DNA of 64,000 nt from Candidatus Deferrimicrobiaceae bacterium (GTDB taxonomy: Bacteria; Desulfobacterota; Deferrimicrobia; Deferrimicrobiales; Deferrimicrobiaceae), in contig CAWBVY010000001.1 in the NCBI GenBank assembly GCA_963792415.1, positions 160,001-224,000 on the forward strand, given 5' to 3'. The notes beneath the pieces are model-generated. The model ran no database searches and had not been told where the DNA came from. It saw nothing but the letters and a program-made list of their open reading frames with translations. Positions 30,215 to 48,674 of the stretch are shown one piece after another (the first letter of the stretch is position 1; each line of letters begins with the position of its first letter). The position numbers were made by a program, and so were the translations under genes.

Positions 30215-30227
30215 ATTGATACGGCCG

Positions 30228-30625: not shown

Positions 30626-30644
30626 CCTAAGGAGAGGGAGGTTC

Positions 30645-31548: not shown

Positions 31549-31591
31549 ATTGATTATATTTTGAAGAAACGGTAACAGGGATGGTGAGAAT

Positions 31592-31971: not shown

Positions 31972-32352
31972 TCACCCCGACAAGATTCCTTCTTCAATTC
32001 CCCTCTGAACGAACTTCTCCAATTCCTCGATGTAATGACGCGACAAACTGATCAGGTCTTCAGAGTGTCGTTGCGACGAACCGGCCTGGTCTTCAGCTCC
32101 GGGCCAGTCAGCGAACCGATGCCGAAACGCTGTCTGACTGGTATAACTCAATACAACATTCCCGGCGATGGTCTTTTCATACCATTGTTGCCCCCCCTTC
32201 GACTTTGATTCCTCCCGGGCATATTGGGTTACAGACTGGGCCGCCGCCAGGAACGCGCTCAAGTAGTATCGGAACGTCCCGCGGTCGTGTAACGACTCTT
32301 CCATCTTAGCCAGAAAGAACTTTGCCTCCCCAATCTTGTATCGCTCGTTCAT
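31972..32352 (-). CDS. hypothetical helical protein (possible degenerate HEPN-like)
   Basis: EAKFFLAKM...FRYYLSAFLAAAQSV..Y pattern; no clear RxxxxH motif. Confidence 0.5.
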   Translation of the reverse strand: MNERYKIGEAKFFLAKMEESLHDRGTFRYYLSAFLAAAQSVTQYAREESKSKGGQQWYEKTIAGNVVLSYTSQTAFRHRFADWPGAEDQAGSSQRHSEDLISLSRHYIEELEKFVQRGIEEGILSG

Positions 32353-32587
32353 CTCAATTCACGCCCCCCTATCGAGATAATTCCAACATCCCAACCGCTT
32401 CCTCCACGGCCTCGAGAATCTGCTCCCCCGACATCGGGAACCGATTCGTCGGCGCACCCTCTGAAACTTTACGGCAGAACCGGGTGGAATCTTCAGGATG
32501 TAATTGTTACTTCACCCCCCTCGGCATGGCACTTTCTGGTCGGTGTAGTGTGGGATATTGCTTACAAACCGAGGGTCGAGGGCACGT

Positions 32588-32632
32588 TTCGTAATCGGCG
32601 GGTCGTCGGTTCCATCCCGACCGCCGGCTCCA
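32588..32632 (+). repeat. att site: copy of tRNA-Thr 3' 45 nt
   Basis: ttcgtaatcGgcGggtcgtcggttcCatcccgaccgccggctcca vs 27889-27933, 3 mismatches in 45. Confidence 0.9.
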
Positions 32633-32784
32633 TTCAGGCATGTTATTGCGTACGTAAAGGCGATCCCTTGGAAGGGATTGTTCCGGGAAAATTATTTCCC
32701 ATTAAGGCTCTGCTTTTTCACGAATGACAACGACGGACCATATCATTCTTCTTTATAATGAACTACATGCATTCACACAGTCGA

Positions 32785-32829: not shown

Positions 32830-33120
32830 ATGAAAAAGATCCCGGACGACGATTGGTTGATGAAAGGATCTGCCTGGAACGAGGAGGAGTTGCTTCCAAT
32901 AGCGTTGGGCAAGAAGCCGGAACAGGTACCGGTAAAAACCGTCATGGTCTACTGGATGGACAAGAAGAACATGCGGAAAGAGCCCATCGGGATCCTCATG
33001 GAGCGACGAAAATCAGAACGGGAAAACAACAACGCTATCGGCATGTTGCGCCTTGCTCGGAAATCATTCGCCAGAACGGAGGAAGAGGCTCAAAGGATTC
33101 TCATCGGAGATTTCGTTTGA
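32830..33120 (+). CDS. small hypothetical protein, 'ERR..R.NN' family paralog 3
   Basis: ...VKTVMVYWMD...EPIGILMERRKSERENNNAIGMLRLARKSFA; GGGGAG RBS. Confidence 0.75.
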   Translation: MKKIPDDDWLMKGSAWNEEELLPIALGKKPEQVPVKTVMVYWMDKKNMRKEPIGILMERRKSERENNNAIGMLRLARKSFARTEEEAQRILIGDFV

Positions 33121-34580: not shown

Positions 34581-34985
34581 TTACTTCCTCCCCTTCTCCT
34601 GCAGGAATTCGCCGAGCGCCTTGTCGACTTTCCCGATGTGGTTGACCAGCCAGTCGCCCATGTAGCGGCCCATCTTGTCGGCCAGTTCGGGGGTGGCGCC
34701 CTTGTCGTCGTACTCGTCCCTCAGGTCGTAGAAGTCGTTGATGAACGCCACGTGCGCCCCCTTGTGGGAAGGGAACCCCGGGTAGGAGAGGCGGCGCATG
34801 TAGATCTCTTCCAGCCCGAAATGGTTGGTGACGTAGTCCTCGAGGTAGTCCAGAACCTTCACCAGGTCGTGCGCGGCGGGTTTCCCTTCCTCCCGCAACA
34901 GCGAGTTGATCGCGGCGAAAAGTTCCCGGTGCTGGGCGTCGATGGTGTCCACCCCCACCGACCATCGTTCCGTCCACTCGAACAA
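34581..34985 (-). CDS. bacteriohemerythrin
   Basis: W...SVGV..ID.QH, HFGLEE, H...H, WLVNHI...D. Confidence 0.92.
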   Translation of the reverse strand: MFEWTERWSVGVDTIDAQHRELFAAINSLLREEGKPAAHDLVKVLDYLEDYVTNHFGLEEIYMRRLSYPGFPSHKGAHVAFINDFYDLRDEYDDKGATPELADKMGRYMGDWLVNHIGKVDKALGEFLQEKGRK

Positions 34986-34997
34986 GATCGCCTCCGG

Positions 34998-35222
34998 TTA
35001 TCCGGCCGCCGGAGAGGAGGGGTATCCCTCCTCCGCGGTCGCCTTCAACAGCATCTCCACGGTCGTCCTCGAGGGATCGCAGGCGACCACCGCGCGCGGA
35101 GGGGACAGGGTCACCTCGACCGCCTCCACCCCGGGTACCGCTCCGAGCGCTTTCTTCACCGCGGCGACGCAATGGCCGCATGTCATCCCCGTGATCGCCA
35201 GCGCCACATGTCCTCTCTCCAT
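34998..35222 (-). CDS. heavy-metal-associated (CopZ-like) chaperone
   Basis: GMTCGHCV; 74 aa; C-terminal GY. Confidence 0.9.
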   Translation of the reverse strand: MERGHVALAITGMTCGHCVAAVKKALGAVPGVEAVEVTLSPPRAVVACDPSRTTVEMLLKATAEEGYPSSPAAG

Positions 35223-35290: not shown

Positions 35291-36784
35291 ATGATGGAGA
35301 ACGGGACGATACTTGTAACCGGGGCCACCGGCTACGTGGGAGCGCGCCTGGTGACCCGCCTGCTCGCGAAAGGATACCGGGTTCGCGCCACCGGCCGTTC
35401 CCTCGCCCGCCTGCGGAAGCGCCCCTGGGCGGACCATTCCGCCGTGGAACTCCTCCCGGCCGACGTGACCGACGCCGCGTCGATCGCGAAGGCGTGCGAG
35501 GGGTGCGCGGCGGCGTACTACCTCGTCCACTCCATGATGCCGGGGGAGGGGAAATTCGAGGAGGTGGACCGGGAAGCGGCGCGAAACATGGCGCGGGCCG
35601 CCGGGGAGGCAGGCCTTTCGCGGCTGATCTACCTGGGCGGACTGGGGGAGGAGAACCCGTCCCTGAGCCGCCACCTCCGTTCCCGCGCGGAGGTCGCGGA
35701 GATTCTCGCCGCGGGGAAGACCCCCGTCACGATCCTGCGCGCCGCCATGATCCTCGGGGCGGGCTCCGCATCCTTCGAAATCCTGCGCTACCTGGTGGAC
35801 CGTCTCCCCGTGATGATCACCCCGAAATGGGTGCACACCGAGTGCCAGCCGATCGGCATCCGGAACGTCCTCGACTACCTCGTCGGTTGCCTGGAGACGC
35901 CCGCCACGGCCGGCGGCACCTTCGACATCGGGGGCCCGGAGGTCGTCACCTACCGGGAGCTGATGCGCATCTATGCGGAGGAGGCCGGGCTTCCGTCCCG
36001 TCTCGTGATCCCGGTCCCGGTCCTGTCCCCCCGCCTTAGCTCCTACTGGATCCACCTCGTCACTCCCGTGCACGCGGAGGTCGCCCGGCCCCTGGCCGAG
36101 GGGCTTTCCAACCGTGTGGTCTGCCGGGACAACCGTATACTGGACCTGATCCCCGTGGAACGCTCCACATGCCGGGAGGCGATTCACGGGGCACGGGGGC
36201 CGAGGAACTTCCGGTTCCTGGAGGCGGAACAGCCCCCGGGGTGGGTCCCCTGGGAGACGTACCGGTACCCCGACGATCCGCCGTGGGCGGGGGGGACGTT
36301 CTACCGGGACACCCGACGGCTCTCCGTCCGCGCGACGCCGGCGGAGGTCTGGGAGCAGATCGAGGCCCTGGGCGGACAGAACGGCTGGTACAGCGCGGAC
36401 TGGCTCTGGTCCCTGCGCGGCACCCTGGACCGGCTGTGCGGCGGGATCGGCATGCGAAGGGGAAACCGGAAAGGGGAACCTCTCTCCCGCGGCGCGGAGG
36501 TCGACTTCTGGCGCGTGGTCTCGGTGACGCCGCGACGGGAGTTGCGGCTGCTGGCGGAGATGAAACTTCCGGGAGAGGGAGTTCTTTCCTTCCGGCTGCG
36601 GGAGACGGACCCCGGAACCACCCAGCTGACCCAGACCGCCCAGTTCCTTCCCCGCGGCCTTGGGGGGATCGTGTACTGGAGGCTCGTCGCCCCCTTCCAC
36701 CGGTTCGTCTTCCCCGGCCTCATCCGCGAGATCGCCCGGCGCACGGGGAAGCGGATCGTCTCCGGGCCGGAGCAGGTCCGATGA
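35291..36784 (+). CDS. atypical SDR with DUF2867 C-terminus (YbjT-like)
   Basis: TGATGYVG, YYLVHSM, GSASFE, GG.NGWY..WLW.LRG..D, AEMKLPG. Confidence 0.88.
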   Translation: MMENGTILVTGATGYVGARLVTRLLAKGYRVRATGRSLARLRKRPWADHSAVELLPADVTDAASIAKACEGCAAAYYLVHSMMPGEGKFEEVDREAARNMARAAGEAGLSRLIYLGGLGEENPSLSRHLRSRAEVAEILAAGKTPVTILRAAMILGAGSASFEILRYLVDRLPVMITPKWVHTECQPIGIRNVLDYLVGCLETPATAGGTFDIGGPEVVTYRELMRIYAEEAGLPSRLVIPVPVLSPRLSSYWIHLVTPVHAEVARPLAEGLSNRVVCRDNRILDLIPVERSTCREAIHGARGPRNFRFLEAEQPPGWVPWETYRYPDDPPWAGGTFYRDTRRLSVRATPAEVWEQIEALGGQNGWYSADWLWSLRGTLDRLCGGIGMRRGNRKGEPLSRGAEVDFWRVVSVTPRRELRLLAEMKLPGEGVLSFRLRETDPGTTQLTQTAQFLPRGLGGIVYWRLVAPFHRFVFPGLIREIARRTGKRIVSGPEQVR

Positions 36785-36871: not shown

Positions 36872-38641
36872 GTGAGTTCGAATCCCCCCAGCATCTCTCC
36901 CCACGCACCCGAAAAGAACGGCTTGTTCCTCGACGACGGTTCCCGTGTCGCCGTGATCGGCGGCGGACCCGCGGGCTCCCTCTTCACCTATTTCCTCTTC
37001 GAGATGGCGGAGCGGATCGGGATGGAACTGGCCGTGGACATCTACGAACCCAGGGACTTCACGAAAAACGCCCCGAGCGGGTGCAACATGTGCGGGGGCA
37101 TCGTCTCCGAATCGCTCGTCCAGTTGCTGGCCACCGAGGGGATCAACCTCCCTTCCAGCGTCGTGCAGCGGGGGATCGACTCGTACGTCCTCCACATGGA
37201 CGTGGGGACCGTGCGGATCGAGCCGACGCGCCGGGAAAAACGGATCGCCGCCGTCTACCGCGGCGGGGGCCCGCGCGGAGTCGTCGAGTCCCGCTGGGAC
37301 AGCTTCGATGCGCACCTCCTCAAACTTGCGAAGGAGCGGGGGGCGCACGTTTATCAGGAACGCGTTGAGGGGATCGACCGGAACGGCGGGAAGCCGCGCA
37401 TCACGACGAAAAAGGGGACCTCCCCGGAATACGAGCTCCTCGTCGGCGCGGTGGGCGTGAACACGGGCGCCCTCAAACTCTTCGAAGAGATGGGCGCGGG
37501 CTATCGGGCTCCCGGGCTGACGAAGACGTACATCTGCGAGTTGTTTCTCGGAGAGAGGACGATCAAGACGTACTTCGGAAACGCGATGCACATGTTCCTC
37601 CTCAACCTCCCCCGCCTCGAATTCGCCGCGCTGATCCCGAAGGGGGATTACGTGACGATGGTGATGCTGGGCACCGGGATCGACAAATCCCTCGTCGATG
37701 CGTTTTTCTCGGCCCCGGAAGTGCGCAAGTGCTTCCCCTCCGACTGGTCCCCGCCGGCTGATTTCTGCCGCTGCTCCCCCGCCATCAACATCTCGGCGGC
37801 GGTCAAGCCGTTCGCCGACCGGATGGTGCTCATCGGCGACAGCGGCGTGAGCCGTCTCTACAAGGACGGGATCGGCGGGGCGTACCGGACCGCGAAGGCG
37901 GCCGCGAGAACGGCGGTGTTCGAAGGGGTGGCGGAGGAGGATTTCCGGAAAGGCTACCTCCCCGTCTGCCGGTCGCTCTCGGTGGACAACGGGATCGGGA
38001 AGGTCGTCTTCGGGATCACGACCCTGATCCAGAAAACGACCGTGCTCCGGAAGGGGCTGTTGCGGATGACCGCGGCGGAACAGGATGGAAGCCAGTGGAA
38101 ACCACGGATGAGCGACGTCCTGTGGGACACCTTCACGGGGAGCGCCCCGTACAAGGATGTCTTCCGCCGGTCGCTCCACCCCGTTTTTCTCGGACACCTT
38201 TTCTACGAAACGTTGACGGGAATGCTCCCCGCGGGCCGGGAGGGCGGGAAGAAGGAGGACAAGGTGCCATTCGGAAAGACGGGCGAACTGGGCAAGATCT
38301 ACAATTCGGGGGAAATCATCGTCCGGCAGGGGGACGCCGGCGAGTGCATGTACTTCATCCAGTCCGGCAACGTCGAAGTGATCCACGAGAGCGACGGAAA
38401 GGAAGTGAAGCTCGCCGAGCTGGGGCACGGGGAGTTCTTCGGGGAGATGGCCCTCTTCGAGAAGGGGGTCCGCTCCGCCACCGTCCGCCCGCTGGGCGAA
38501 GTGCGGGTCCTCTCCGTCGACAAGCGGCTGTTCCTCCGGAAGATCCACGAGGACCCTGCGCTGGCCTTCCGCATCATGCAGAAGATGTCCCGCCGGATCC
38601 GGGACCTCGACAAGGAACTGGGGAATCTGCGTTCGGAGTGA
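36872..38641 (+). CDS. FAD-dependent oxidoreductase (geranylgeranyl-reductase-like) fused to C-terminal cNMP-binding domain
   Basis: IGGGPAG, GCNMCGG, IGD....RLYKDGIG; C-terminal FFGEMAL....RSATV phosphate-binding cassette; GTG start with GGGAGG. Confidence 0.85.
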   Translation: MSSNPPSISPHAPEKNGLFLDDGSRVAVIGGGPAGSLFTYFLFEMAERIGMELAVDIYEPRDFTKNAPSGCNMCGGIVSESLVQLLATEGINLPSSVVQRGIDSYVLHMDVGTVRIEPTRREKRIAAVYRGGGPRGVVESRWDSFDAHLLKLAKERGAHVYQERVEGIDRNGGKPRITTKKGTSPEYELLVGAVGVNTGALKLFEEMGAGYRAPGLTKTYICELFLGERTIKTYFGNAMHMFLLNLPRLEFAALIPKGDYVTMVMLGTGIDKSLVDAFFSAPEVRKCFPSDWSPPADFCRCSPAINISAAVKPFADRMVLIGDSGVSRLYKDGIGGAYRTAKAAARTAVFEGVAEEDFRKGYLPVCRSLSVDNGIGKVVFGITTLIQKTTVLRKGLLRMTAAEQDGSQWKPRMSDVLWDTFTGSAPYKDVFRRSLHPVFLGHLFYETLTGMLPAGREGGKKEDKVPFGKTGELGKIYNSGEIIVRQGDAGECMYFIQSGNVEVIHESDGKEVKLAELGHGEFFGEMALFEKGVRSATVRPLGEVRVLSVDKRLFLRKIHEDPALAFRIMQKMSRRIRDLDKELGNLRSE

Positions 38642-38683
38642 TCCACCCGCTCGAGCGACGGACAGGAAAGGAGGGTCTCGAAG

Positions 38684-39451
38684 TTGAGATTAAAGGTATT
38701 GGGCGCCGCCGGTTCCGAGGTCCCCGGGCACAACTGCCCGGCGTTCCTGATCGACGAGAAGATCCTCCTGGACGCGGGGACGATCGCCCTGTCCCTGAAC
38801 ATCCGCGAGGAGCACAGCCTGGGGTGGATCCTCCTCACGCACGCCCACCTCGACCACATCAAGGGGATCCCGTTCCTGCTCGACAACCTGGTGACCCGCA
38901 GCACCGGGAACACCATCACCGTCGCCAGCGGGAAGGACGTCCTGAACGACCTGAAGAAGAACATCTTCAACGACAGGATCTGGCCCGACTTCTCCCGGAT
39001 CCCGACGCGCGCACACCCGGTGCTGCGGTACAAGAACATCGGTACCACGCGGCCCTTCCAGATCGACGGGTACCGGATCACGATGGAGAAGGTCCACCAC
39101 ACCGTCCCGGCGTACGGGTACATCGTAGAGAAGCCGGGGAACAAGGCAATCGCCTACACGGGCGACACGGGGCCGACCGACCGCTTCTGGGAGAGGATGG
39201 CCGCCCACGACGTGAAGTACCTCATCACGGAGACCTCCTTCCCCAACCGGCTGGAGAAGCTCGCCCTGACGACCGGCCACCTGACCCCCTCCCTGCTTAA
39301 GGGGGAGATCGCGAAGATGTCCCCGCCGCCGGAGAAGATCTTCATCATGCACCTGAAGCCGCAGTTCCTGAATGAGATCGAGATGGAGATCCGGGCGCTC
39401 GATCACGACAACATCGAGTTCCTGAAGGACGGAGAAGTGATCCTGGCCTAG
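38684..39451 (+). CDS. class II-type 3',5'-cyclic nucleotide phosphodiesterase (metallo-beta-lactamase fold)
   Basis: LLDAGT, THAHLDHI, IFND.IWPDF, YTGDTGPT, ETSFPN, HLTP, MHLKP. Confidence 0.85.
   Translation: MRLKVLGAAGSEVPGHNCPAFLIDEKILLDAGTIALSLNIREEHSLGWILLTHAHLDHIKGIPFLLDNLVTRSTGNTITVASGKDVLNDLKKNIFNDRIWPDFSRIPTRAHPVLRYKNIGTTRPFQIDGYRITMEKVHHTVPAYGYIVEKPGNKAIAYTGDTGPTDRFWERMAAHDVKYLITETSFPNRLEKLALTTGHLTPSLLKGEIAKMSPPPEKIFIMHLKPQFLNEIEMEIRALDHDNIEFLKDGEVILA
39404..39451 (+). repeat. 48-bp direct repeat, copy 1 (PDE 3' end)
   Basis: 40/48 identical to 41010-41057. Confidence 0.8.
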
Positions 39452-39458
39452 CCCGCCG

Positions 39459-40943
39459 TCAGGAGATCCCGAAGAATCTCATCAACTTCCGGAGGAGCGC
39501 GTCGTGGAGGGACGACGCTTCGTCGGCAACCTTGCGGACCTGCTGCACGGTCAGGATCTTCTGGAGGCGGTCCCCCAGCGCGGAACTCAAGCCCTCCAGG
39601 ACGGACGGGTGCGAACGGATGATCGGAGCGATGGCACCCTTCGAAATCTCGGCGAGCCAGACCTCGTCGACCGCGGCGACCGTCGCGCGGCGCTTCTCCC
39701 CGGTGAGGAGCGACATCTCCCCGAAGAAATCGCCCCCGGACAACGATCCGACCGTCTGCCCGTCCACGGAAACCTCGAGGTTCCCGCACAGGTTGATGAA
39801 GAGGGAGTCCCCCTCCTCGCCCTGGCGCACGACGATCTCCCTGTTTCCGTAGACGCGCAGCCGGACGTGCGGCAAGAGGGCGTCCAGTTCCTCCTCGCCC
39901 AGGGGGGAAAGGATCTCGGCCCGGCGGAGGCTCCCGCGGATCGCGGCGGCGTCCATCCGGAACGGCGGGGCCGGCTCCTTCCGCACGATCTCCCGGTGCG
40001 GGTACGGGAACGTCTGCCCCTCGCGCGTGACGGCGTACCAGACGCGCCGCAGGACCTTGTCGCGGGCCTCGAGGAGGTTCGCGTACTCCTCGAGGTAGAA
40101 GCGCAGGTTGTAGTGGATGCCGCTGTCCATGAACCCGTCGACCTTCACCCAGGGCGCCGGCGTCGACAGGATCCCCGGCTCGTCCCGGAGGGCGTCGAGC
40201 AGGATCGCCTTCGCCCGTTCGGGGGGGAACGCGTAATCGAGGAGGACCGTGAGGGTGACCGGCGGAGGCGCACCCGGACGGCTCCCGATGGAGTGCACCA
40301 CGTTCTGCGTCATGTAAAGGTTCGGGACGTGGACCAGGTGACCCTCCAGGGTCCGGACCGTGGAGTACCGGAACCCCACGTTGACGATCTCGCCCGTGAT
40401 GTCCTTTTCCTTGATCCAGACCCACGTGCCGCGCCGGAACGCTTCGTCGGCCTGGATCTGGAAGCCGGAGACGATGTTGGCCAGCGAGGTCTGCATCGCG
40501 AACGCGAGGGCGGCGGTGAGCACCGTGGTCGTCGTGAGGATCGACGTCATGTTGATTTCGAAGATCACGCGCAGGGCGGTCGCGCCGAAAAACAGGTACA
40601 CGCCCAGCAGGAGAATGTCCCGGAGGAACGACGGGACATTCCCCTTCATCCGGCGGTGAAGATAGGTGTCCACGAGCAGGTAGGCGACCAGGTTCGCCCA
40701 GCAGAAGAGCATGATCAGCCCGTGAATCTCCAGTATGTAGGGGGTGTATTCCACCGGGACCTTGAAGGGTCCCACGACGTACGCAAGAAAGATCCCGAAA
40801 AGGGCCGCCTTGATCGTCAACCAGACCTTGGACATGGAAAGGTCCATCCGCGTCACGGCGCGGACGGCGGCGATCAGGAGGAAGAACGCGAGGGGGACCA
40901 GCAGCAGGAGGGTCTCGTTGGACAGTAGGAATTTGAACGTCAT
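39459..40943 (-). CDS. MscS-family mechanosensitive channel with C-terminal cNMP-binding domain
   Basis: TM helices, AFAMQTSLANIVSG, G.IVNVGFR.ST, FPYPHR; FFGEMSLLTGEKRRATV. Confidence 0.9.
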   Translation of the reverse strand: MTFKFLLSNETLLLLVPLAFFLLIAAVRAVTRMDLSMSKVWLTIKAALFGIFLAYVVGPFKVPVEYTPYILEIHGLIMLFCWANLVAYLLVDTYLHRRMKGNVPSFLRDILLLGVYLFFGATALRVIFEINMTSILTTTTVLTAALAFAMQTSLANIVSGFQIQADEAFRRGTWVWIKEKDITGEIVNVGFRYSTVRTLEGHLVHVPNLYMTQNVVHSIGSRPGAPPPVTLTVLLDYAFPPERAKAILLDALRDEPGILSTPAPWVKVDGFMDSGIHYNLRFYLEEYANLLEARDKVLRRVWYAVTREGQTFPYPHREIVRKEPAPPFRMDAAAIRGSLRRAEILSPLGEEELDALLPHVRLRVYGNREIVVRQGEEGDSLFINLCGNLEVSVDGQTVGSLSGGDFFGEMSLLTGEKRRATVAAVDEVWLAEISKGAIAPIIRSHPSVLEGLSSALGDRLQKILTVQQVRKVADEASSLHDALLRKLMRFFGIS

Positions 40944-41009
40944 GGCCCGATCCGCTTCTCCAGGGGTGGTGCAGGAATTGTCCGTCATCCGGATGGAGGA
41001 AAGCAAGGC

Positions 41010-41057
41010 CACGACAACAAAGAGTTCCCGATGGACGGCGAGGTGATCCTGATCTAG
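41010..41057 (+). repeat. 48-bp direct repeat, copy 2 (decayed PDE 3' end)
   Basis: Encodes HDNKEFPMDGEVILI* vs PDE end HDNIEFLKDGEVILA*. Confidence 0.8.
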
Positions 41058-41185
41058 GGAGGTTGTATCGCCGGAGTCGCAATGTCCGGCGCAGCGCACT
41101 TGAATGACTCGTCAAACAGGTTGATCGCACCGGTCGAAATGAATCCGTACCGTTGTGGCAGATGTCAGCTGACGTCGGCAAACGA

Positions 41186-41225
41186 ATCCCGGTACGCCGC
41201 CATCCATTCCGCGGCGTACCGGGAT
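41186..41225 (-). terminator. terminator-like hairpin ending cyclase-receptor-secreted protein operon
   Basis: ATCCCGGTACGCCGC-10 nt-GCGGCGTACCGGGAT perfect 15-bp stem. Confidence 0.7.
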
Positions 41226-41266
41226 CGGTGTCCCGCTCGTGTTGACAAAGAGAAATTCTTATAATG

Positions 41267-41986
41267 CTACCATGGGACCTCGCATTGATCATCAAACTGT
41301 GCATTACACGTTGGATATGTCTTTGAATACTCCCACTGCAAATCAGTTGTACAAGTATAAGAACTCCCTACACCAATTGGAGCCGACCCGAGGTCACAAG
41401 AACCCTTAATGTGTACCACCTCTTCTGCGGTATAATCCCCTGTTGGAGAACCATCGGGATTGAAAGCCGTAGTGTAACATAGCCCGTAATCATTTGGGTC
41501 AAGAACAGGGCATGTCAAGTTAATATCTTCATACGCTTGTATATACACATCAAACGTCTTGACAACAATACCATAAGCCGTCCAATTCGGATTTACGCAA
41601 TACGAATTCGGATCACCAAGATTGGCAAGGAGGTCTTCATCGGTAAAAGTTATAAATGAATCCCATCGTCCATTTCTTGTTGGCGCATCAGGCGAAGCTT
41701 GACTTCCTGTCACAGTTGTTGGGTAAATAAAAGGATTCCCGACCCCTCCGTCATTGCCTCCAGGGTTTTTACATAAAACCATCACCTCGTTCGGGAACAA
41801 TGTTACCTTGACACTCGTAGGTCTTAGATCTTTATTCGCTATTCCCCTCCAACCTGAATAGATCACTACGGTATTTTGGTATGCAGCCCATCCACTGGAT
41901 GAGGCCGGCCACGCATGGGCGTCCGTGCCTCCAAGCGCCATGATGCCGATACAGAGTGTCCCGATAATCAATAATCTCTTCAACAT
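41267..41986 (-). CDS. secreted Cys-rich hypothetical protein
   Basis: Signal peptide ending AHA; 8 Cys in the mature part (CKNPGGN, CVNPNW); AT-rich codons. Confidence 0.8.
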   Translation of the reverse strand: MLKRLLIIGTLCIGIMALGGTDAHAWPASSSGWAAYQNTVVIYSGWRGIANKDLRPTSVKVTLFPNEVMVLCKNPGGNDGGVGNPFIYPTTVTGSQASPDAPTRNGRWDSFITFTDEDLLANLGDPNSYCVNPNWTAYGIVVKTFDVYIQAYEDINLTCPVLDPNDYGLCYTTAFNPDGSPTGDYTAEEVVHIKGSCDLGSAPIGVGSSYTCTTDLQWEYSKTYPTCNAQFDDQCEVPW

Positions 41987-42105
41987 TGTCTTCTCCTCTC
42001 GTCGTTGTATTCAACCGGGAATGATTGTCAGAATCACTCCCAACGGCGCACTCCATTTCCATCGTGACCATCCCCTCCTTCCCTAATAATAAGGATCCTT
42101 CGGTA

Positions 42106-45100
42106 TCACGGAAGCGCCAACGTCACCTTGCAATAGAAATTTCTGCCGGGCTGTATCCTCGGGTTGTTCACGTCCGTGTCGGCGTAGTCGAATTGCTCGT
42201 CAAAAAGATTCGTGGCCCCCACGGAAACGAACCCGTAGCGCTTGGGCAGACGGTAGCTGATGGCGGCATCGACGACCCAGAAGGTGTCGCTGCCGGAATC
42301 GAAGCTAAAACCGTTCTTATCCTGGAATACGCCCTCCTGATCATAATAGGTCGCGTTCATGCCTGCGCTCCACCCGGAGGGGTGGAAGAAGCTGATCCCT
42401 ATCGGTAAGGATTGGGTTTTCACGTCCTGTATCCCCGCGTTGTATTGATCACCCCTCTCGAATTTCTCGTATACGTACCCCCCCCGGAGAGCCAGCATCG
42501 GATGAGGAGCCCAGTTCAGGTAGAGACGGCCGATGTGTTCCGTCCAGTCGGCATTCTGGAAAACAAAGGATGCCGAACCTTCCGGTTGGGTTAGGTAAGG
42601 CACTTGCATGTCCCTGTAGAAATATTCCGCTCCTCCGAACAGGCTTTTAGAAAATTTCTGGTCGACAGCGCCACCGTAGACCCACGCCTCCGTCGCATTA
42701 AAATCGTCGAAAAACTGATTGAAGCCGGCCACCTGGGTCGGCTCGAGGGTCTGGTCCGTAACCAGCGTCCTCTTCATCGTTCGGAACACGGCGCCACGAA
42801 GAGTCGTTTGAGTAGGAAGGTCCCATGTAATGCCGAGTTTCGGATTGAACTGATTTTTTTCCACATCCCGGTCGTCCCGATTGTTCTCGTCACTCTTGAA
42901 GAAGTCGCCGCTGGCGCCAGCGGTGATCGTCACGGTCGGAACGAGCTTGATGTAGGCGTAGAGATACACGTTGATATGGGAAATATCCAGAGCGATGCTG
43001 TCGGTGCTCTCGAATAGAACCAAAGGAGGAACTTCCCCCGGCCAGGTGACATTTTCACTGAACCCGAGGTCCTGATTTATCTTGAAGTATCCCGCGCCGA
43101 CGACGGTGTTGATGTAATTGGACCGGTAAATGTGCTGCAACTCCCCGGTGTAAGCCTTTTCATCGGTAGTGTTACCCAAAGCATCCCGTATATCCGGGGG
43201 AGGGGCCCCTATGATTGCGGGGTCGAAAAACAAGGTGTAGGCCACGCTGGCATCACGCTTGGTGTACGAAAAGTTCCCGATGAGATTGGACTGCGGTGAA
43301 AAGGACTGAAGGAATCCCAGGCGGAAATGATCTCGGTTTTCCTCCTGATTAAGTTCTTTGGAAATGTTGTCTTTCCAGAAAAGCAGTTCGGTATCCCCTC
43401 TCTTGTTATCCCTGTATCGGTATTCAGCCTGGATGCTCGTCCGGGGAAAGAGCTGGTACTGGGCATAGACGTCAAAGATGTTGTCCCTGAGGCCGTTGTT
43501 TTCGCGGACACCGTCGGTTTTAAAGTAGTTCTGGCCCATACTGAAGGAAGCCTTGTTGTAGATTCCGGAGACAACGACCTCCTCACCCAATGTGTCGTTG
43601 TTCCCGGCAATTCCACTTGCCTGGAGCGCTATCCGGTTCCGGTTGAACAATGGGTTGAATTCGTTGAAGGAAAGGGACGACGGGCCCTCCGCGCTCGAGA
43701 TGAACAGATTGCTCTCCGCCAGACGAGGTTGAATGGGGGTGATGTTGATGGGCTGAAGAAGCTGGGACACGAGCAACTCGCTCACCCTTGCGATCTGGTG
43801 GCGCGGCAAAGCGGCGTAGCTGTCGGCCAGGAACCGGTGGCCGGAAAAGTCGGACGGGTCCGTATTGACCGATTTCCAGCCTTCCACCAGCGCGCGCTGC
43901 TGGAAGCCCAGGTCCGAGTAGATCCGGGCGACGCTCGCGCTGCGTGCCGCAAGATCCGAATCGAGCAGGAGACGTGAGCGGTAGACGGCCCGGTTGTCGT
44001 TCAGCTCGATGGACTTTTCCAGGTCCTGCAATGCTTCCACGGGCCGGTTCGTGGTCTGCTTCTCTATCGCCTCGTAGAAATACGGCGTGGGGTCCGACGG
44101 ATCCAGGCTCTTGGCCATCCCGTACTGGCCGGTCGCCAGTTTGTCGCGCTTCTCTTCGTAGTAGGCCTTCCCAAGATAACTGCGTATCAGGGAATTGTTC
44201 GGATCGAGGCTCATGGCGATCTCGATCTCCCTTCTCCCCTCCTCCAGGTGGCCTTCACGGATCATCGCCAGGCCCAGGCCCAGCCGCGGGAGCGGATCCG
44301 AATCATCGAGCTTGATCGCTTTTTCGAAAGCTCCCTTCGCTTCCACTGTTTCGACCCGGGTCAGGTGGGAGAACCCCAGGACCGTCTGCGTCCTCGAGAG
44401 GTCGGGCCGCAGCGCCGCCGCCTTCTTCGCCGAATCCAGGGACATGTCGAGGTTGCCGAACGATTGCTGCAACTCGGCCAGCCGGGCCCAGGCGAGGGCG
44501 TTTTCGGGCGCCAGCTTCACGGCTTCCTCCAGGCTGCCCAGCGCTCCCGGCAGGTCGAATTGGGCCTGCTGCGCATAGGAAAGGGCGATCCGCGCCGTCG
44601 CGGATTTCGGGTCCGACTCCACCGCCTTCCGGGCAAGCTCGAGGGCCTTCCCCTTCTCGTTCTGCGTGACGGCGATCATCGCCTGGAGCGCGAAGGCGTC
44701 GCTGTTCTTCGGGTCGAGTTTCTGCGCCTTGTCGATGTCCGCCGTTGCCTCGTCGACCCGGCCGACGGTCAGCAGCTGCGACGCGCGTGCGGTGTAGAAG
44801 CGCGGATCGTTTCCGTCTTCCTTCAGATCCTGGGGAGGGGCATCGAGGACGGGCGGATAGTACAGCGCCCACTGGACCGCATCCCGCGGGCGCACGACGA
44901 CCCGGTACACCGGGGCATTCCCCGCCTCGGCCACCGCCGACTGCCCCGTGGCGACCGGGAGGCCGCCCGCCGCGTTCGATGCCAGCACCTTCCCCTCGAA
45001 GACGGTCAGGTCGGTCTTCCCTTCCTCGACCCGGAGGAAGAACTCCGTCCCTTCCACGCCGGCGTTCACGGTCGCGGTGCGCACCTCGAGGTTCCGCGTG

Positions 45101-45465
45101 ACGCGGCTGAAGAAGAGCGCGGCCCCGCCGATCATGTCGACCAGGGAGGTCCGCTCGTCTTTCATGCCCCCCAGAGTGACAGTGGTGTTCTGGTCGAGAC
45201 GGAGGACGGGGTGGTTGTACAGCGCGATGTCCGCCCGGCTTTTCCTGTCCGTCCGGACCGTGTCCCCCGGGCAGTACGTCTCGTTGAGTTTCGCCGGCTC
45301 CCACAGGGCCTGCCCTGCCCCCTTGACTTCCACGACCCCCTGGACCGAGACCACCTTTCCGGCCCATTTCTCGCACGTAGCCGCGTGTGCGATGCCGCTG
45401 CACAACATCATCGCGATGGCTGCACATGCCAGAAGACTCACAACGTACGGGTGCAGTCGTTTCAT
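42106..45465 (-). CDS. FecR-domain/TPR/TonB-receptor-like beta-barrel outer-membrane protein
   Basis: Signal peptide; FecR (GDTVRT, VRTATVNAGVEGTEF); multiple TPRs; barrel C-terminus NLFD...PGR.F. Confidence 0.85.
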   Translation of the reverse strand: MKRLHPYVVSLLACAAIAMMLCSGIAHAATCEKWAGKVVSVQGVVEVKGAGQALWEPAKLNETYCPGDTVRTDRKSRADIALYNHPVLRLDQNTTVTLGGMKDERTSLVDMIGGAALFFSRVTRNLEVRTATVNAGVEGTEFFLRVEEGKTDLTVFEGKVLASNAAGGLPVATGQSAVAEAGNAPVYRVVVRPRDAVQWALYYPPVLDAPPQDLKEDGNDPRFYTARASQLLTVGRVDEATADIDKAQKLDPKNSDAFALQAMIAVTQNEKGKALELARKAVESDPKSATARIALSYAQQAQFDLPGALGSLEEAVKLAPENALAWARLAELQQSFGNLDMSLDSAKKAAALRPDLSRTQTVLGFSHLTRVETVEAKGAFEKAIKLDDSDPLPRLGLGLAMIREGHLEEGRREIEIAMSLDPNNSLIRSYLGKAYYEEKRDKLATGQYGMAKSLDPSDPTPYFYEAIEKQTTNRPVEALQDLEKSIELNDNRAVYRSRLLLDSDLAARSASVARIYSDLGFQQRALVEGWKSVNTDPSDFSGHRFLADSYAALPRHQIARVSELLVSQLLQPINITPIQPRLAESNLFISSAEGPSSLSFNEFNPLFNRNRIALQASGIAGNNDTLGEEVVVSGIYNKASFSMGQNYFKTDGVRENNGLRDNIFDVYAQYQLFPRTSIQAEYRYRDNKRGDTELLFWKDNISKELNQEENRDHFRLGFLQSFSPQSNLIGNFSYTKRDASVAYTLFFDPAIIGAPPPDIRDALGNTTDEKAYTGELQHIYRSNYINTVVGAGYFKINQDLGFSENVTWPGEVPPLVLFESTDSIALDISHINVYLYAYIKLVPTVTITAGASGDFFKSDENNRDDRDVEKNQFNPKLGITWDLPTQTTLRGAVFRTMKRTLVTDQTLEPTQVAGFNQFFDDFNATEAWVYGGAVDQKFSKSLFGGAEYFYRDMQVPYLTQPEGSASFVFQNADWTEHIGRLYLNWAPHPMLALRGGYVYEKFERGDQYNAGIQDVKTQSLPIGISFFHPSGWSAGMNATYYDQEGVFQDKNGFSFDSGSDTFWVVDAAISYRLPKRYGFVSVGATNLFDEQFDYADTDVNNPRIQPGRNFYCKVTLALP

Positions 45466-45522
45466 TGTCGGCTCCCTCCCCCTTTATCGTTTATCCTTGC
45501 CCTCCGGTTCTCAACCGTTTGG

Positions 45523-47781
45523 CTACTTCTTGTCCATGAGAACCACCCCGTCCCACGGTTCCGCGGGGGGGGTGGTGTTGTACACCTCGCACAGGCTTAA
45601 GTAATAACGTGAAGGCTCGTCCTCTCCCAGCGCTTCCAAAGCCCAGCGGAATTTTTCCTTTGCTTCCTCCCAGGATTTCTGCTTGAAGGCGGCAAGAGCC
45701 TCGGCGAATACCCGGCACCCCTCGCGCTGTTTCCCGTCCGCCTCTTCCAGGCGGCAGATCAGCTCGTGGATCGCGATCGGCATGCTCTTCCCTTTCAACC
45801 GGAACGACCCGAGCTCCCTCGTCAACAGGCCTTCCAGCTGGTCTATCACCTCGGAGGACACCAGGACGCGCGTTCCCAGGTGCTTGTTCATCCCCTCGAT
45901 CCGTGACGCCGTGTTGACGATGTCCCCCATGACGGAGTGCTGGTAATGGTCCCCGCCGCCGATGTTCCCGAGGAAGATGTCCCCGTAATGCAGGCCGATC
46001 CGGGTGTTGAGGCGGTGCGGATCGGATGGCCCGTACAGCCGGTGCACGGCCCGGTTGATGTCGATCGCCGCGAGGCACGCCTTGTCCCGAAGGGCCGCGT
46101 CGGGGGTCGCCGAGACCCAGATCGCCAGCATGGAGTCCCCGGCGAGGTTCGATACGACCCCGCCGTGCTCCTTCACCGGCCGGAACATCGTCTCGTAGTA
46201 CCGGTTCATGAACGCGCCGAGCTCCTTGGGGTCCAGGGTCTCCGACAACGTCGTGTAATGCTCCGCGTCCGTGAACAGGCAGACGCCGTAGACGGACTCG
46301 CTGACGGCGCCGAGCTCCCCGAGGTTCTCCACCAGCTGGTCGACGACGTTCTTGGGGAGGTAATGCTCGAAGGCCTTCCGGACCTTCTCCTGCTCCTTCT
46401 TCGTGTCGAGGTAGTTCCAGATCACCCCTCCGAAGAATGCCAGCGGAGCCTGGAAAAAGAGCGGGACCGCCACGGGGTACCAGAGGTTGGCCGTCTTGAA
46501 CTGAAACCACGCGAGGGCGAGATAGAGGCCGCTCAAGCCCACAATGCCCAGCGCCGCGATCCCGATATGGAAATACCTGCCGAGGAACCCCATGACCACG
46601 CCCCAGAGGACAACGATGAAGACCAGGGGAAGCAGCCCGAGCGGCTTCACCGATGTATCGTCCAGGATGTTGGAGAATGCGGTGGCGGAGATCTCCACCC
46701 CGCCGATGAAGATTCCGTTCGCCTGGGAGAACACCGTGTAGAAGCTGTCCTTCCGCTCCGCCAGCATCGCCTCCGACAGCCCCACGAAGACGGCCTTCTC
46801 CTTCAGGTCGATCTTCCGGTCCCCCGCCGCACCGTCGCGGATCTGGAGCGCCTGGTGATACGGAATCGTCGTGATTGTGCGAGGCCTGCCGTAGTAGTTG
46901 ATGAACCGGTTGTTCGACCCCTCGTACACGCGGATCAGCGCCTCGACCAGCCGTTGCCTGCCCGCATCGCCGGCGGGCGCCTTCGAACGTTCGAGCTCGC
47001 GCCGCATTCTCTCCGCGATCAACGGATCGGCCAGGAACACCTCCCGGATCTTTTTCATCAGGTCCCTGACGGTTCCCGTGGCGATGGCCGCCGACATGTC
47101 GCGGGGGAACTTCCTCGCCTGCGCCGGGCTCGCCTTCTCGAGCAGGCGGATGAAATCCCCGTAGGCCGTCGCCCCGTAGATCTGGAGCATCACCATCGGA
47201 ACGGAGGGAGAGTCCCCTGCGCCCGGCTCGAACGTGAAGAACTGGCTCACCCGGAAAGGGATCCGGGGAAGCGTGAACGGCGCCGTGGCCGCGGCGGCAT
47301 CGGAGAAGAGCTCGATCGGCGGCACCACCTTGACGACGTTGTGGCTCGAGGACTCGGAAGACCCGTCCACGTCCGGCAGAAGGATGTCCTTGGTCCGGAT
47401 CGGCTCGGTGAGGACGACGTTTCGCGCCTTTTTCATCGCGTTCGCAAACGCGATGTCGTCCTTCGCCACCCGCGGCTCGATGAAATGGAGGTCGAAGGAT
47501 ACGACCCTGGCGCCTTCCCGGGCCAGGATCTCCGTCAGGCGCGCATGGAGAGAGCGGGGCCACTTGTCGGGGTTGTCCGGGATGCCAAGCTGCTCGGACG
47601 ATTCCCGGTCAATGCTGATGACGACGGCTTCCGGAGGAGCCTGGCGCGCTCCCCTCAACCTGAACAGCAGGCCGAGACCGGTGTTTTCCTCGAGATCGAG
47701 CGCGAATCGGAAAGGGCTTGCGACCAGACCCGCGACCCCGACGAGGAAACCGAGGATGACTGCTTTCAACAAGCGGGACAT
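45523..47781 (-). CDS. CHASE2-domain class III nucleotidyl cyclase
   Basis: VVISID..S, WPRS.HA.L, FDLHF CHASE2 motifs; 3 TM; LFTD, GD, RIGLHYG, GDIVNTASRIEG, LKGK; C-terminal TPR-like WDGV tail. Confidence 0.92.
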   Translation of the reverse strand: MSRLLKAVILGFLVGVAGLVASPFRFALDLEENTGLGLLFRLRGARQAPPEAVVISIDRESSEQLGIPDNPDKWPRSLHARLTEILAREGARVVSFDLHFIEPRVAKDDIAFANAMKKARNVVLTEPIRTKDILLPDVDGSSESSSHNVVKVVPPIELFSDAAAATAPFTLPRIPFRVSQFFTFEPGAGDSPSVPMVMLQIYGATAYGDFIRLLEKASPAQARKFPRDMSAAIATGTVRDLMKKIREVFLADPLIAERMRRELERSKAPAGDAGRQRLVEALIRVYEGSNNRFINYYGRPRTITTIPYHQALQIRDGAAGDRKIDLKEKAVFVGLSEAMLAERKDSFYTVFSQANGIFIGGVEISATAFSNILDDTSVKPLGLLPLVFIVVLWGVVMGFLGRYFHIGIAALGIVGLSGLYLALAWFQFKTANLWYPVAVPLFFQAPLAFFGGVIWNYLDTKKEQEKVRKAFEHYLPKNVVDQLVENLGELGAVSESVYGVCLFTDAEHYTTLSETLDPKELGAFMNRYYETMFRPVKEHGGVVSNLAGDSMLAIWVSATPDAALRDKACLAAIDINRAVHRLYGPSDPHRLNTRIGLHYGDIFLGNIGGGDHYQHSVMGDIVNTASRIEGMNKHLGTRVLVSSEVIDQLEGLLTRELGSFRLKGKSMPIAIHELICRLEEADGKQREGCRVFAEALAAFKQKSWEEAKEKFRWALEALGEDEPSRYYLSLCEVYNTTPPAEPWDGVVLMDKK

Positions 47782-47900
47782 CGTAACACATCATGAAATA
47801 TTGTGCGCATCGATTGCACCCCGGATAACAACAACGAATAATCCATATATTCAATATAGTAGCCTTTCATAAAATAGATAAAATTGAGCCAAACATAATA

Positions 47901-47917
47901 AGCAATTGCCGCGCCAA
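47901..47917 (-). promoter_or_regulatory. sigma54 (-24/-12) promoter of cyclase operon
   Basis: Minus strand TTGGCGCGGCAATTGCT vs consensus YTGGCACG-N4-TTGCW; ~120 nt upstream of cyclase ATG. Confidence 0.75.
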
Positions 47918-48674
47918 CACGGAGAGCTCGCTTAACTCATTAAAAATAAACGATTTTACTTGGCATCACCAGAAGTGGAAGGAGGGCTCCACCTCGAAGT
48001 GGCTAAAATATTACCGAAACGATGCAAATCAATCCCGACGTGGCCGAGTGTAAAACGGTGAGGGCTTGGGATCAACCCCGCGAACCCAACCAGAAACCCA
48101 AACGAATCCCTTTCCACCCGCGGGTCATCAAAGTACTTCAGGAAACCTTATCGTGAGGCATCGAGCACCCTCGGTAACAACACGAATAATCATATTATTC
48201 AATAAGTTATTATTGATAAAAATTGTCCGCGTTTGAGGATGACATCGTCTAAACGACTCCATCAAGAGTTTTGGATATATAAACATAAATATTGTTAAAT
48301 TTAAAACGCAATCTCGGATGCTTAGGAAACCTAATTTCAAACTGTTTGTCAACAATTAATTTGACTCGGTAAGCTGGAGGATCGTGCAGAGTTCCTCGAT
48401 GCAGATGACACGGAGAAGATCAGAATACCCTGTCTTCATCCTCTTCCCCCGGGGTGTCCAATCGGAGGTTTGCACGGGCTAATCCGTGTGAAAGATTCCA
48501 GCAGGATGTCGGGCAGTCTGCGTTCGAGGGCACCATCCGGTCGGATCAGGAATTCATCGGAGCTGTGGAATTCCACGACGACACGCTTCTTTCACCACGC
48601 CGGACGTGGGAGAATATTCCTGTACGCGGATAACGCCGGGGGAGGTCCCCGCAGGATTCGCTGGAGGCGCGCCG

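Follow-up and report, generated by a model that had tools for sequence, protein, structure and literature searches.

Read-out of cAMP and cGMP in bacteria has mostly been studied through Crp regulators. In the 64 kb of contiguous DNA analysed here (the window), an earlier note had singled out six genes at 36872..47917 as a self-contained system that makes, degrades and reads a cyclic nucleotide, is driven by a sigma54-type promoter, and acts directly on a channel and an enzyme in a configuration not known to have been described. Is this locus one such system, and which part of it is new? Our answer, to which as a whole we assign a probability of about 0.6, is that two convergent modules, one for input and one for output, are joined here in a mosaic and share one cyclic nucleotide.

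Two gene units converge at the locus

Open reading frame calls and Pfam assignments confirmed six contiguous, intact genes with the domains proposed for them. They do not make up a single operon: the flavoenzyme-cNMP (FAD-cNMP) and phosphodiesterase (PDE) genes are on the + strand, the cyclase, receptor, secreted-protein and MscS-cNMP genes are on the - strand, and the two units converge between the PDE stop (39451, +) and the mscS stop (39459, -). With six genes on two strands, one promoter cannot drive them all. The sigma54-like -24/-12 sequence itself, TGGCGCGGCAATTGC, is present upstream of the cyclase gene (47902-47916, - strand) with GG-N10-GC spacing, but the site is unconserved, since the pattern was found upstream of none of six related cyclase genes (one region being only 160 bp). 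It is one of five one-mismatch matches in the window, versus 2.0 expected, and 7 of 100 shuffles reach that number. We reject a single sigma54 operon on grounds of strand and absent conservation. Scans for sigma70 promoters (2 vs 2.3) and terminators (12 vs 11.5) gave no excess over shuffles, and an Rfam scan of 27-55 kb found a tRNA alone.

The observation that no Crp/Fnr regulator lies in the cluster held. A cNMP-domain profile found only the FAD-cNMP and MscS-cNMP domains in the whole window, which therefore contains no Crp-type cNMP domain, and both domains carry the FGEM.L...R.ATV cassette as written (FGEMALFEKGVRSATV and FGEMSLLTGEKRRATV). Absent from the earlier note were an internal ribosome-binding site, a DUF2867 partner, an Asn in the cyclase, and a low-GC cassette of barrel and secreted protein.

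To place the locus among its relatives we surveyed the best-scoring 80 of 440 loci related to the flavoenzyme (numbered L001 onwards), the scoring of which favours loci with an adjacent cNMP domain; 46 of the 80 have at least 10 kb of flank, and many are short. The exact six-gene set occurred in none of these 80, which does not support a fixed configuration. In L028, a close relative, the whole - strand unit is missing, and L003 and L006 carry the genes in a rearranged order.

Direct repeats lie at both ends of the - strand unit. The MscS-family channel with a C-terminal cNMP-binding domain (39459..40943, - strand; Pfam, bCNG architecture) is encoded between two copies of a 48-bp direct repeat, the first being the PDE 3' end (39404..39451, +) and the second a further copy of it (41010..41057, +); they are 83% identical, with an alignment score of 64 versus a maximum of 36 in 300 shuffles. 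Because it lies between two copies of the PDE 3' end, mscS-cNMP is probably an insertion. The 93.5% identity between L001 and the window stops at 41010..41057. MscS-cNMP genes are found near the flavoenzyme in three of the best-scoring 80 of 440 loci (L001, L005 and L008), in three arrangements, and similar full-length proteins occur on 62 of 93 matching plasmid records. Upstream of the cyclase gene, at 48045..48204 (- strand), the cyclase 5' end and its upstream DNA recur as a degenerate second copy that lies 348 bp from the first (repeat families D5 and D7); we read this repeat as a recombination scar. The L002 cyclase start also matches 48043-48130.

A flavoenzyme coupled to a cNMP-binding domain

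The robust new part of the locus is the GGR/FixC-fold flavoenzyme with its cNMP-binding domain, which we read as a portable output. The gene (36872..38641, + strand) encodes an FAD oxidoreductase with a GGR/FixC/PHBH fold at residues ~20-450, followed in frame by a CRP-type domain without the DNA-binding helix-turn-helix. Its predicted model (pLDDT 67) best matches the GGR-like Ta0516 (Z 25.9, rmsd 3.6, 359 aligned) and also FixC (Z 24.2, rmsd 4.3, 354 aligned); confidence is mostly below 60 after residue 453, in the linker and cNMP domain, so the model shows no docking of that domain on the enzyme. The PHBH-type FAD fold is also common to monooxygenases and halogenases (Z 22-23 against the model), and no family profile supports a halogenase or monooxygenase reading, which we set aside as less likely. 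The GGR profile TIGR02032 matches weakly (43.6 bits, far under its curated cut-off of 158.8), the GxGxxG and GD motifs are kept, and four cysteines are invariant in the ungapped members of the best-scoring 80 of 440 loci (C71 and C74, each 75/75; C299 and C301, each 80/80). Members of the family are encoded in 440 or more stretches of DNA from GTDB genomes; our literature searches found no description of it, and plasmid records gave no match at E 1e-20.

A seventh gene belongs with the + strand unit and encodes a protein with SDR-like NAD(P)-binding and DUF2867 domains (35291..36784, + strand; Pfam). DUF2867 genes occur in the flank of 19 of the best-scoring 80 of 440 loci, with 19 of 20 domain matches within 5 kb, and in L074 and L076 DUF2867 and flavoenzyme are fused in one ORF. 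The domain resembles the START/SRPBCC fold, as judged by alignment to SRPBCC neighbours (hhalign 75%, E 2.5e-5), and matched no PDB sequence. The SDR-DUF2867 protein is a probable partner of the flavoenzyme, and we tentatively suggest that the two together may carry out redox chemistry with a hydrophobic substrate such as an isoprenoid, a quinone or a lipid.

Within the fused gene, a Shine-Dalgarno sequence (AAGGAGG) and an in-frame GTG at codon 465 (38252..38266, + strand) could yield a standalone cNMP-binding protein of 125 residues, and it is at this position that the separate cNMP gene starts in split orthologues. Among the best-scoring 80 of 440 loci, the cNMP gene is split from the flavoenzyme in 28, and the two are adjacent in 77, a count that the selection favours. 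Of the 47 fused ORFs that could be scored, the one in the window among them, 36 have an internal Shine-Dalgarno and start, and 24 of 28 split loci have the pair as well; the rate in 3950 random in-frame windows is 5.8%. The tree does not separate fused from split forms but mixes them, which implies repeated fusion or fission.

Of 77 cNMP domains, 75 retain the phosphate-binding Glu, 74 the Arg and 74 the equivalent of CRP Arg123. At the site corresponding to CRP 128, Asn is commonest (35 of 77), and the window has Asp. In CgrA-based work, Leu/Asn in the C-helix is said to be a cGMP signature; we found no confirmation of this in the accessible portions of the literature consulted. As far as the available text of two further reports goes, the site equivalent to CRP 128 selects cUMP in PycTIR (PMC11224242), and Leu/Asn is also found in CRP proteins of Gram-positives (PMC10187061).

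Cyclase and phosphodiesterase genes recur beside the flavoenzyme

The gene next to the flavoenzyme (38684..39451, + strand) encodes a predicted class II-like cyclic nucleotide PDE of the metallo-beta-lactamase (MBL) fold: PDEase_II matches with 40.4 bits (cut-off 23.7) over residues 50-107 only, the THAHLDH motif (HxHxDH) and downstream metal ligands are intact, and the best PDB match is yeast PDE1 (4ojv, E 6.9e-6).

Neighbours in the survey were identified by Pfam scans of 235 chosen representatives and nine locus proteins, out of 870 called genes, and by custom profiles for the remainder. In the best-scoring 80 of 440 loci, a class III cyclase gene is nearby in 22 and a PDE-like gene in 17 (13 of the MBL class II-like family); a cyclase, PDE-like or CHASE2 gene occurs in 30, across phyla. 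The gene-neighbourhood check proposed earlier bears out the linkage of FAD-cNMP to cyclase and PDE genes, but not the six-gene set. The same 80 loci gave 2 with GGDEF, 8 with receiver and 5-9 with HATPase domains, a Crp-HTH regulator in three (one more being marginal) and BTAD-type regulators in four; the Crp-family regulator of L002 lies 6.7 kb from the flavoenzyme. A hemerythrin gene is found near the flavoenzyme in the window and in three close relatives.

Matches within 5 kb (548 kb of sequence) versus beyond (341 kb) numbered 18/0 for PDE, 20/5 for cyclase and 4/4 for receiver domains, the cyclase enrichment being modest (p 0.04, uncorrected for related genomes). Collapsing the best-scoring 80 of 440 at 75% identity gave 59 clusters, of which 18 retained a cyclase. 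In that sample 11 loci have the cyclase gene as the immediate neighbour, L056 has one that is cut off, and at least five different cyclase architectures are linked to the flavoenzyme. The available DNA, often short, held no cyclase, CHASE2 or PDE gene in 50 of these 80 loci; such a gene is present in 18 of the 46 whose flank reaches 10 kb or more. One locus, L044, combines a CHASE2 cyclase, a TPR-barrel, FecR, a secreted Ig protein, FAD+cNMP, a cNMP-gated K+ channel and an MBL hydrolase; it is an independent rebuild of the whole cassette from non-orthologous parts. The recurrent pairing suggests that the messenger controls the flavoenzyme directly.

The proposed input module and its variable cassette

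The CHASE2 membrane class III nucleotide cyclase (45523..47781, - strand; Pfam) has intact catalytic residues (metal-binding Asp505/Asp549, Asn623/Arg627). Asn545 replaces the adenine-selecting Lys, and the second selecting site is Ser, as in CyaK, with which the protein shares 26% identity over 396 residues. As the messenger we favour cAMP, alone or mixed with cGMP: we put a cAMP-dominant output at slightly better than even odds, consider a cGMP-dominant one rather unlikely, and give a pyrimidine messenger, or none, lower odds still. PycC models match only the generic class III domain of this cyclase; Pycsar or another defence system was rejected, the PADLOC matches being to shared domains only and Pfam showing no TIR.

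The NsrA-type outer-membrane receptor (42106..45465, - strand) comprises a signal peptide, FecR, TPR, a conserved linker and a TonB-receptor-like barrel. It is a full-length homologue of S. meliloti NsrA (hhalign 99.5%, 974 columns), and weak Pfam matches together with this homology point to the C-terminal barrel. Identity to the L002 receptor is 84% over residues 1-686 versus 49% over the remainder, and the part encoded at 42106-43406 is variable and low in GC (0.535 vs 0.633). Beside it lies the gene for a secreted, acidic, Cys-rich beta-sandwich protein (41267..41986, - strand; GC 0.46) with eight cysteines after its signal peptide. This protein has no Pfam family and belongs to an unnamed, highly divergent family of 125 representatives at 50% identity; its model (pLDDT 89) gave no clear fold match, the best being generic Ig-like (Z 7.4, rmsd 3.0, 97 aligned), and there was no usable Atlas match and no match in plasmid records. 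L002 carries a homologue in the same slot (E 2.6e-25, 23% identity); the gene is absent from L001 and an unrelated one is found in L003. We propose that barrel and secreted protein form a variable low-GC cassette that sets input specificity.

Discussion

In the two-module reading, the receptor barrel would sense an outside cue, probably a protein, and the signal would pass, by analogy with S. meliloti genetics, through TPR/FecR to the periplasmic CHASE2 domain to turn the class III cyclase on. The CRP-type domain, fused and probably also free, would control the GGR/FixC-fold flavoenzyme, a step for which we observe linkage and from which we infer binding and control; the class II-like PDE, likewise linked, would end the signal, and MscS-cNMP would be a second, optional effector that this lineage gained. 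The cyclic nucleotide may gate both channel and enzyme directly, as first suggested.

The free cNMP-binding protein could be the real sensor, with other targets; the fusion would then reflect a lost stop codon that is tolerated, and the flavoenzyme would simply be co-expressed. The 28 split loci of 80, the internal starts in 36 of 47 fused ORFs against a 5.8% control, the unconserved linker, the three of the best-scoring 80 of 440 loci with a flavoenzyme but no adjacent cNMP domain, and the large Atlas clusters of 420-470 residues lacking that domain would all fit. We nevertheless consider this improbable, as the pair is adjacent in 77 of those 80 loci (selection bias notwithstanding), 11 of 47 fused ORFs have no internal Shine-Dalgarno and start, three loci carry two cNMP domains, and the intermixing of forms implies repeated fusion or fission. 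Less probable by half is that the flavoprotein belongs to the input, as a redox or oxygen sensor (flavin plus four Cys) that tunes cyclase or PDE and receives feedback through cNMP binding. Its invariant cysteines, its pairing with several soluble cyclase types that have no outer sensor, and the nearby hemerythrin gene in the window and three close relatives could be read this way; yet CHASE2 and the receptor already supply the window cyclase with an input, the flavoprotein shares its fold with enzymes that turn over substrates, and a START-like ligand-binding protein is its linked or fused partner.

Equally doubtful is a reading of the locus as a recombination hot spot that has collected mobile signalling cassettes, with the cyclase signalling mainly to Crp or another regulator elsewhere and the barrel varying under phage or predator pressure, not by ligand choice. 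The direct-repeat scars at both ends, the deletion in L028, the reshuffling in L003 and L006, the Crp regulator of L002, the BTAD-type regulators in four of the best-scoring 80 of 440 loci and the absent or unrelated secreted gene in L001 and L003 are in keeping with it, but a local hot spot does not account for the repeated linkage to cyclase and PDE-like genes in distant phyla, where the cyclases are of unrelated types, and PADLOC matched only shared cNMP and cyclase domains. A bolder idea, to which we give little credence, is self or kin recognition: a strain-specific secreted variant would be read by its co-inherited barrel, the cassette swapping by recombination while FecR/TPR/CHASE2 stay constant, and a non-canonical cyclase, whose product might be cGMP or a pyrimidine cNMP, would directly switch a new class of Cys4-flavoenzyme and a bCNG channel with no transcription step.

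If the two-module reading is true, the flavoenzyme family, with its repeated ties to class III cyclases, would represent a widespread effector that works without transcription. The locus also makes testable the ligands of NsrA-type receptors outside legume symbiosis, since a candidate partner next door diverges with the barrel, and the role of bCNG channels, one of which here accompanies a candidate cyclase and PDE.

Comparison with known systems

The presumed novelty of the configuration survives in part. The flavoenzyme-cNMP pair is new; the input half is known, clusters of CHASE2 cyclase, PDE and FecR/TPR having been published (PMC9239204), as have MscS-cNMP channels (PMC13591265), according to the accessible portions of both sources. 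The model for how the input works is NsrA-CyaK(/CyaD1/D2)-Clr of S. meliloti (PMC7529298 and PMC13001267, in the text available), in which a receptor of FecR, TPR and C-terminal barrel likewise adjoins a CHASE2 class III cyclase. There nsrA and cyaK are adjacent, and here their order is reversed; CyaK keeps the Lys that is Asn in the window cyclase; no Clr/Crp lies in the 64 kb window; and the annotation of a 15.6 kb S. meliloti region has no PDE, channel, flavoenzyme or secreted protein, all of which are neighbours in the window. NsrA responds to uL2, a host protein that is basic; the secreted protein of the window, in contrast, is acidic.

In Campylobacterota, the accessible part of one report describes a cluster of CHASE2 cyclase, PDE, FecR outer-membrane protein and TPR protein, spread by horizontal transfer (PMC9239204). 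The same four functions are co-located in the window, with FecR, TPR and barrel joined in one protein; that description, in the part available, names no cNMP effector, and the window links two. By architecture the channel resembles bCNG channels, with an MscS core, a C-terminal cNMP domain and an intact cassette. According to the available text of a review, what bCNG channels do in the cell is not understood, and there is no structure of one (PMC13591265); in the window the channel is encoded beside a candidate cyclase and PDE.

The flavoenzyme shares with GGR/FixC flavoproteins the PHBH fold, the GxGxxG and GD motifs and the weak TIGR02032 match, but it differs from them in its 14-16% identity, its score under the family cut-off, its four invariant cysteines and its coupled cNMP domain. 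Attachment of a CRP-type cNMP domain to a catalytic domain is also known from Bd1971 (EAL), mycobacterial Pat, PycTIR and XC_0249; in contrast to these, the partner here is a flavoenzyme, and the domain is C-terminal, without N-terminal helices and with a putative translation start of its own.

Two convergent modules that probably share one cyclic nucleotide

All six ORFs of the presumed signalling cluster, with their named domains, were found intact in the window, and the cassettes of both cyclic nucleotide (cNMP)-binding domains read as claimed in the earlier note; its chief error concerned strand. The genes for the flavoenzyme, a GGR/FixC-fold FAD protein with a C-terminal cNMP-binding domain (36872-38641), and the PDE (38684-39451) lie on the + strand downstream of an SDR-DUF2867 gene (35291-36784, +), and converge across a 7-bp gap with the − strand genes for MscS-cNMP (39459-40943), a secreted protein (41267-41986), the receptor (42106-45465) and the CHASE2 cyclase (45523-47781). 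The earlier observation is partly confirmed and its interpretation partly supported: we put at about 0.6 the probability that an NsrA-type input module and a flavoenzyme-cNMP output module, with candidate activities, share one cNMP.

The sigma54-like sequence at 47902-47916, read in the earlier note as a promoter, exists but is weak, and a similar site was found upstream of 0/6 related cyclase genes; the window contains five sigma54-like matches versus 2.0 expected, a number reached in 7 of 100 shuffles. Between the secreted-protein gene and mscS-cNMP, a 25-bp inverted repeat (41176-41235; 84%, 10-nt loop) may act in termination or in transcript processing.

The flavoenzyme-cNMP unit recurs beside cyclase and PDE-like genes

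A genome scan with the flavoenzyme alignment identified 440 stretches encoding a relative, of which the best 80 (loci with L numbers, from L001 on) were analysed, a selection that favours loci having an adjacent cNMP domain; neighbour genes were counted with profiles built from the 80 loci themselves. The closest relatives among the matches listed (88-93% identity) include Candidatus Deferrimicrobium or Deferrimicrobiaceae, and the best 80 of 440 come from Deltaproteobacteria, Chloroflexota, Acidobacteriota, Nitrospiraceae, Scalindua, Verrucomicrobiota and others. Within this best-80 set, profile searches placed a class III cyclase at 22 loci (the immediate neighbour at 11) and an MBL PDE-like gene at 17, 13 belonging to the window PDE family and 4 to another MBL family whose activity is less sure. 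Any of cyclase, CHASE2 or PDE occurred at 30/80, against 2/80 for GGDEF, 8/80 for receiver and 5-9/80 for HATPase domains. Matches at most 5 kb away versus beyond numbered 18 and 0 for PDE, 19 and 1 for DUF2867, 20 and 5 for cyclase, and 4 and 4 for receiver; collapsing the set at 75% identity to 59 clusters kept the cyclase in 18 and the PDE in 8. No cyclase, CHASE2 or PDE gene was found at 50 of the best 80 loci, and only 18 of the 46 with at least 10 kb of flank have one. A Crp helix-turn-helix lay nearby in 3/80, plus one more marginal case.

The cyclases are of several types: CHASE2 with an NsrA-like receptor, CHASE2 with CHAT/ShlB genes, FHA-cyclase, cyclase-AAA-TPR and cyclase-beta-helix. 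The strongest single case is L044: its CHASE2 cyclase keeps the canonical Lys/Thr, and the locus also has a barrel of TPR-Slam-like type, FecR and Ig-domain proteins, FAD and cNMP as split genes, a K+ channel gated by cNMP, and an MBL hydrolase. The same functions are thereby assembled from different parts. The output half, a flavoenzyme-cNMP(-PDE-DUF2867) module, is the new, undescribed part of the locus; a literature search, with most subscription papers outside its reach, found no description of the flavoenzyme-cNMP unit or of the full configuration.

Several loci carry further genes. A Crp-family regulator lies 6.7 kb upstream of the flavoenzyme in L002 (1905-2477), and BTAD/MalT-like regulators flank cyclase-receptor or enzyme genes in L002 (18703-20679), L017 (12013-14988), L023 (8115-9800) and L003 (2-1645, truncated, AAA part only). 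Some of them are accompanied by a small unnamed gene, and they are possibly a transcriptional layer absent from the window. In L021/L050 and L038 the CHASE2 system next to the enzyme unit is of another kind, with ShlB/POTRA and CHAT-TPR genes; in L021/L050 the enzyme unit includes PDE and DUF2867, and DUF928 and cNMP-CBS-DUF294 genes are also present. L062 (1483-3138) encodes an MFS transporter fused to a cNMP domain, divergent from the gene for the enzyme, which adds a third type of cNMP effector in the membrane.

Mosaic make-up of the six genes

The six-gene configuration is complete in no other locus among the best 80 of 440, and the set is a mosaic. MscS-cNMP lies near the enzyme in 3 of these 80 loci, and in both the window and L001 it has a copy of a 48-bp PDE 3'-end repeat on either side; in L002 the PDE faces the secreted-protein gene directly; in L028 (enzyme 91% identical) the whole − strand unit is absent and the next genes are truncated remnants; in L003 and L006 PDE and cyclase are reshuffled. 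Elsewhere in the window (27859-32633), tRNA-Thr(cgt) precedes an island of low GC (0.52-0.56) that encodes a DUF4185 secreted protein. Part of the tRNA is repeated at about 32585-32633, which points to an integrated element. Small unnamed proteins of one family (about 80-110 aa), often paired, occur near these loci (window 30228-30560, −, and 32830-33120, +; L008 1492-2076; L035 1445-1720).

The enzyme and its cNMP sensor

The flavoenzyme model (pLDDT 67) best matches the GGR-like Ta0516 (Z 25.9, rmsd 3.6, 359 aligned). FixC comes next (Z 24.2), followed by many monooxygenases and halogenases (Z 22-23), and the enzyme falls far short of the cut-off for the GGR family. Four Cys invariant across the best 80 of 440 relatives would, judging from the fold, sit near the flavin. 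A DUF2867 gene lies nearby in 19 of these 80 loci, DUF2867 is similar to START/SRPBCC proteins, and SRPBCC genes directly follow the enzyme unit in L071 and L079; this linkage, likeness and neighbourhood, together with fusion to DUF2867, point to a probably hydrophobic substrate. The fusion (L074/L076, 8594-11332) is a 912-aa SDR-DUF2867-flavoenzyme without a cNMP domain, with a two-component pair after it. L031 has a distant tandem paralogue (24%) directly upstream (8752-9879). Divergent from the window's DUF2867 gene are a hemerythrin gene (34581-34985, −), conserved in L002, L028 and L035, and a small heavy-metal-binding-like ORF (about 34990-35220).

The cNMP domain is fused to the flavoenzyme at 49 loci, split at 28 and not adjacent at 3 (best 80 of 440), with fused and split states intermixed over the tree. 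The fused window ORF contains AAGGAGG and GTG at 38252-38266, the start position of the cNMP gene in split orthologues, and of the 47 fused ORFs that could be scored (window counted, 3 left out for want of an anchor), 36 keep such an internal start, versus 5.8% of random windows. Both forms of the sensor, fused and free, are probably produced, and this leaves room for the alternative that it may act elsewhere than on the flavoenzyme. Flavoenzymes of L018, L027 and L051 have two tandem cNMP domains each.

Identity of the messenger

The cyclase retains its metal ligands Asp505/Asp549 and Asn623/Arg627, and its hydrophobicity pattern indicates one N-terminal and three later membrane segments. Asn545 occupies the position of the adenine-selecting Lys, and the second site carries Ser, which CyaK also has there; in L003, L016 and L017 the sister cyclases combine Asn or Asp at the first site with Arg at the second. 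Production of cAMP persists in a mycobacterial cyclase whose adenine-selecting site is Asn. Several partner cyclases at other loci retain the canonical Lys. The two base-selecting sites are reported to shift ATP/GTP preference, not always fully (PMC4215837). On the sensor side, the window domain aligns Leu/Asp with CRP Thr127/Ser128; across 77 of the best 80 of 440 loci, the first site is Leu in 62 and the second Asn in 35, Asp in 16 and Ser in 14. Asn at the latter site is described as selecting cUMP in PycTIR, and Glu occurs there in a cGMP receptor (PMC11224242); Leu/Asn is also reported in Gram-positive CRP proteins (PMC10187061). Taken together, these residues leave more than one candidate messenger, cAMP being the favoured one.

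A variable barrel and secreted protein

GC falls from 0.63-0.65 in flanking genes to 0.535 in the last 430 barrel codons and 0.46 in the secreted-protein gene. Between window and L002, identity is 90% for the enzyme, 91% for the PDE, 80% for the cyclase and 84% for receptor residues 1-686, against 49% for the remaining barrel and 23% for the secreted protein; L001 is 93.5% identical to the window up to 41051, after which its barrel end is 48% identical and the secreted-protein gene is absent. Among 72 receptor homologues, barrels were below 60% identity in 11 of 25 pairs whose N-halves were at least 88% identical, 28 pairs had barrels more alike than their N-halves, and the two halves had a common nearest neighbour in 15/72, versus 37 and 29 within halves. 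This pattern fits barrel exchange, with faster barrel evolution also contributing to the divergence. The secreted family (125 representatives) is highly divergent and acidic (median net charge −14); its model is a confident beta-sandwich for which structure comparison found no clear fold match. The protein is linked to the receptor at two loci, the window and L002, and L003 carries an unrelated small secreted protein in its slot; it might serve the barrel as its ligand, its lid or its cargo. This cassette is, beside the output module, the second undescribed element of the locus.

Comparison with known systems

The input half is of an already known kind. In a tblastn search against plasmids the receptor matched S. 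meliloti nsrA, which directly precedes cyaK; the alignment of the 72-sequence receptor profile with NsrA spans 974 columns (99.5% probability), the NsrA N-half contains FecR and TPR, and the C-half of the L003 receptor orthologue exceeds the cut-off for TonB-receptor barrels. Another secreted protein with a FecR domain (FecR + DUF6600; 52652-54286, −) lies 5 kb from the window cyclase and also occurs in L028, a locus without the receptor. Sensing of a uL2 protein signal is reported to need NsrA and CHASE2 cyclases, with Clr as output (PMC7529298, PMC13001267). The window locus would work alike at the input; we keep it apart from the NsrA-CyaK system because its cyclase lacks the adenine-selecting Lys and no Clr was seen in the window. 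A horizontally spread cluster reported in Campylobacterota likewise comprises a CHASE2 cyclase, a PDE, a FecR protein of the outer membrane and a protein with TPR (PMC9239204). A 2026 review (PMC13591265) describes the role of bCNG channels as not understood and states that they lack a structure; the window's MscS-cNMP has the same architecture, MscS followed by a C-terminal cNMP domain.
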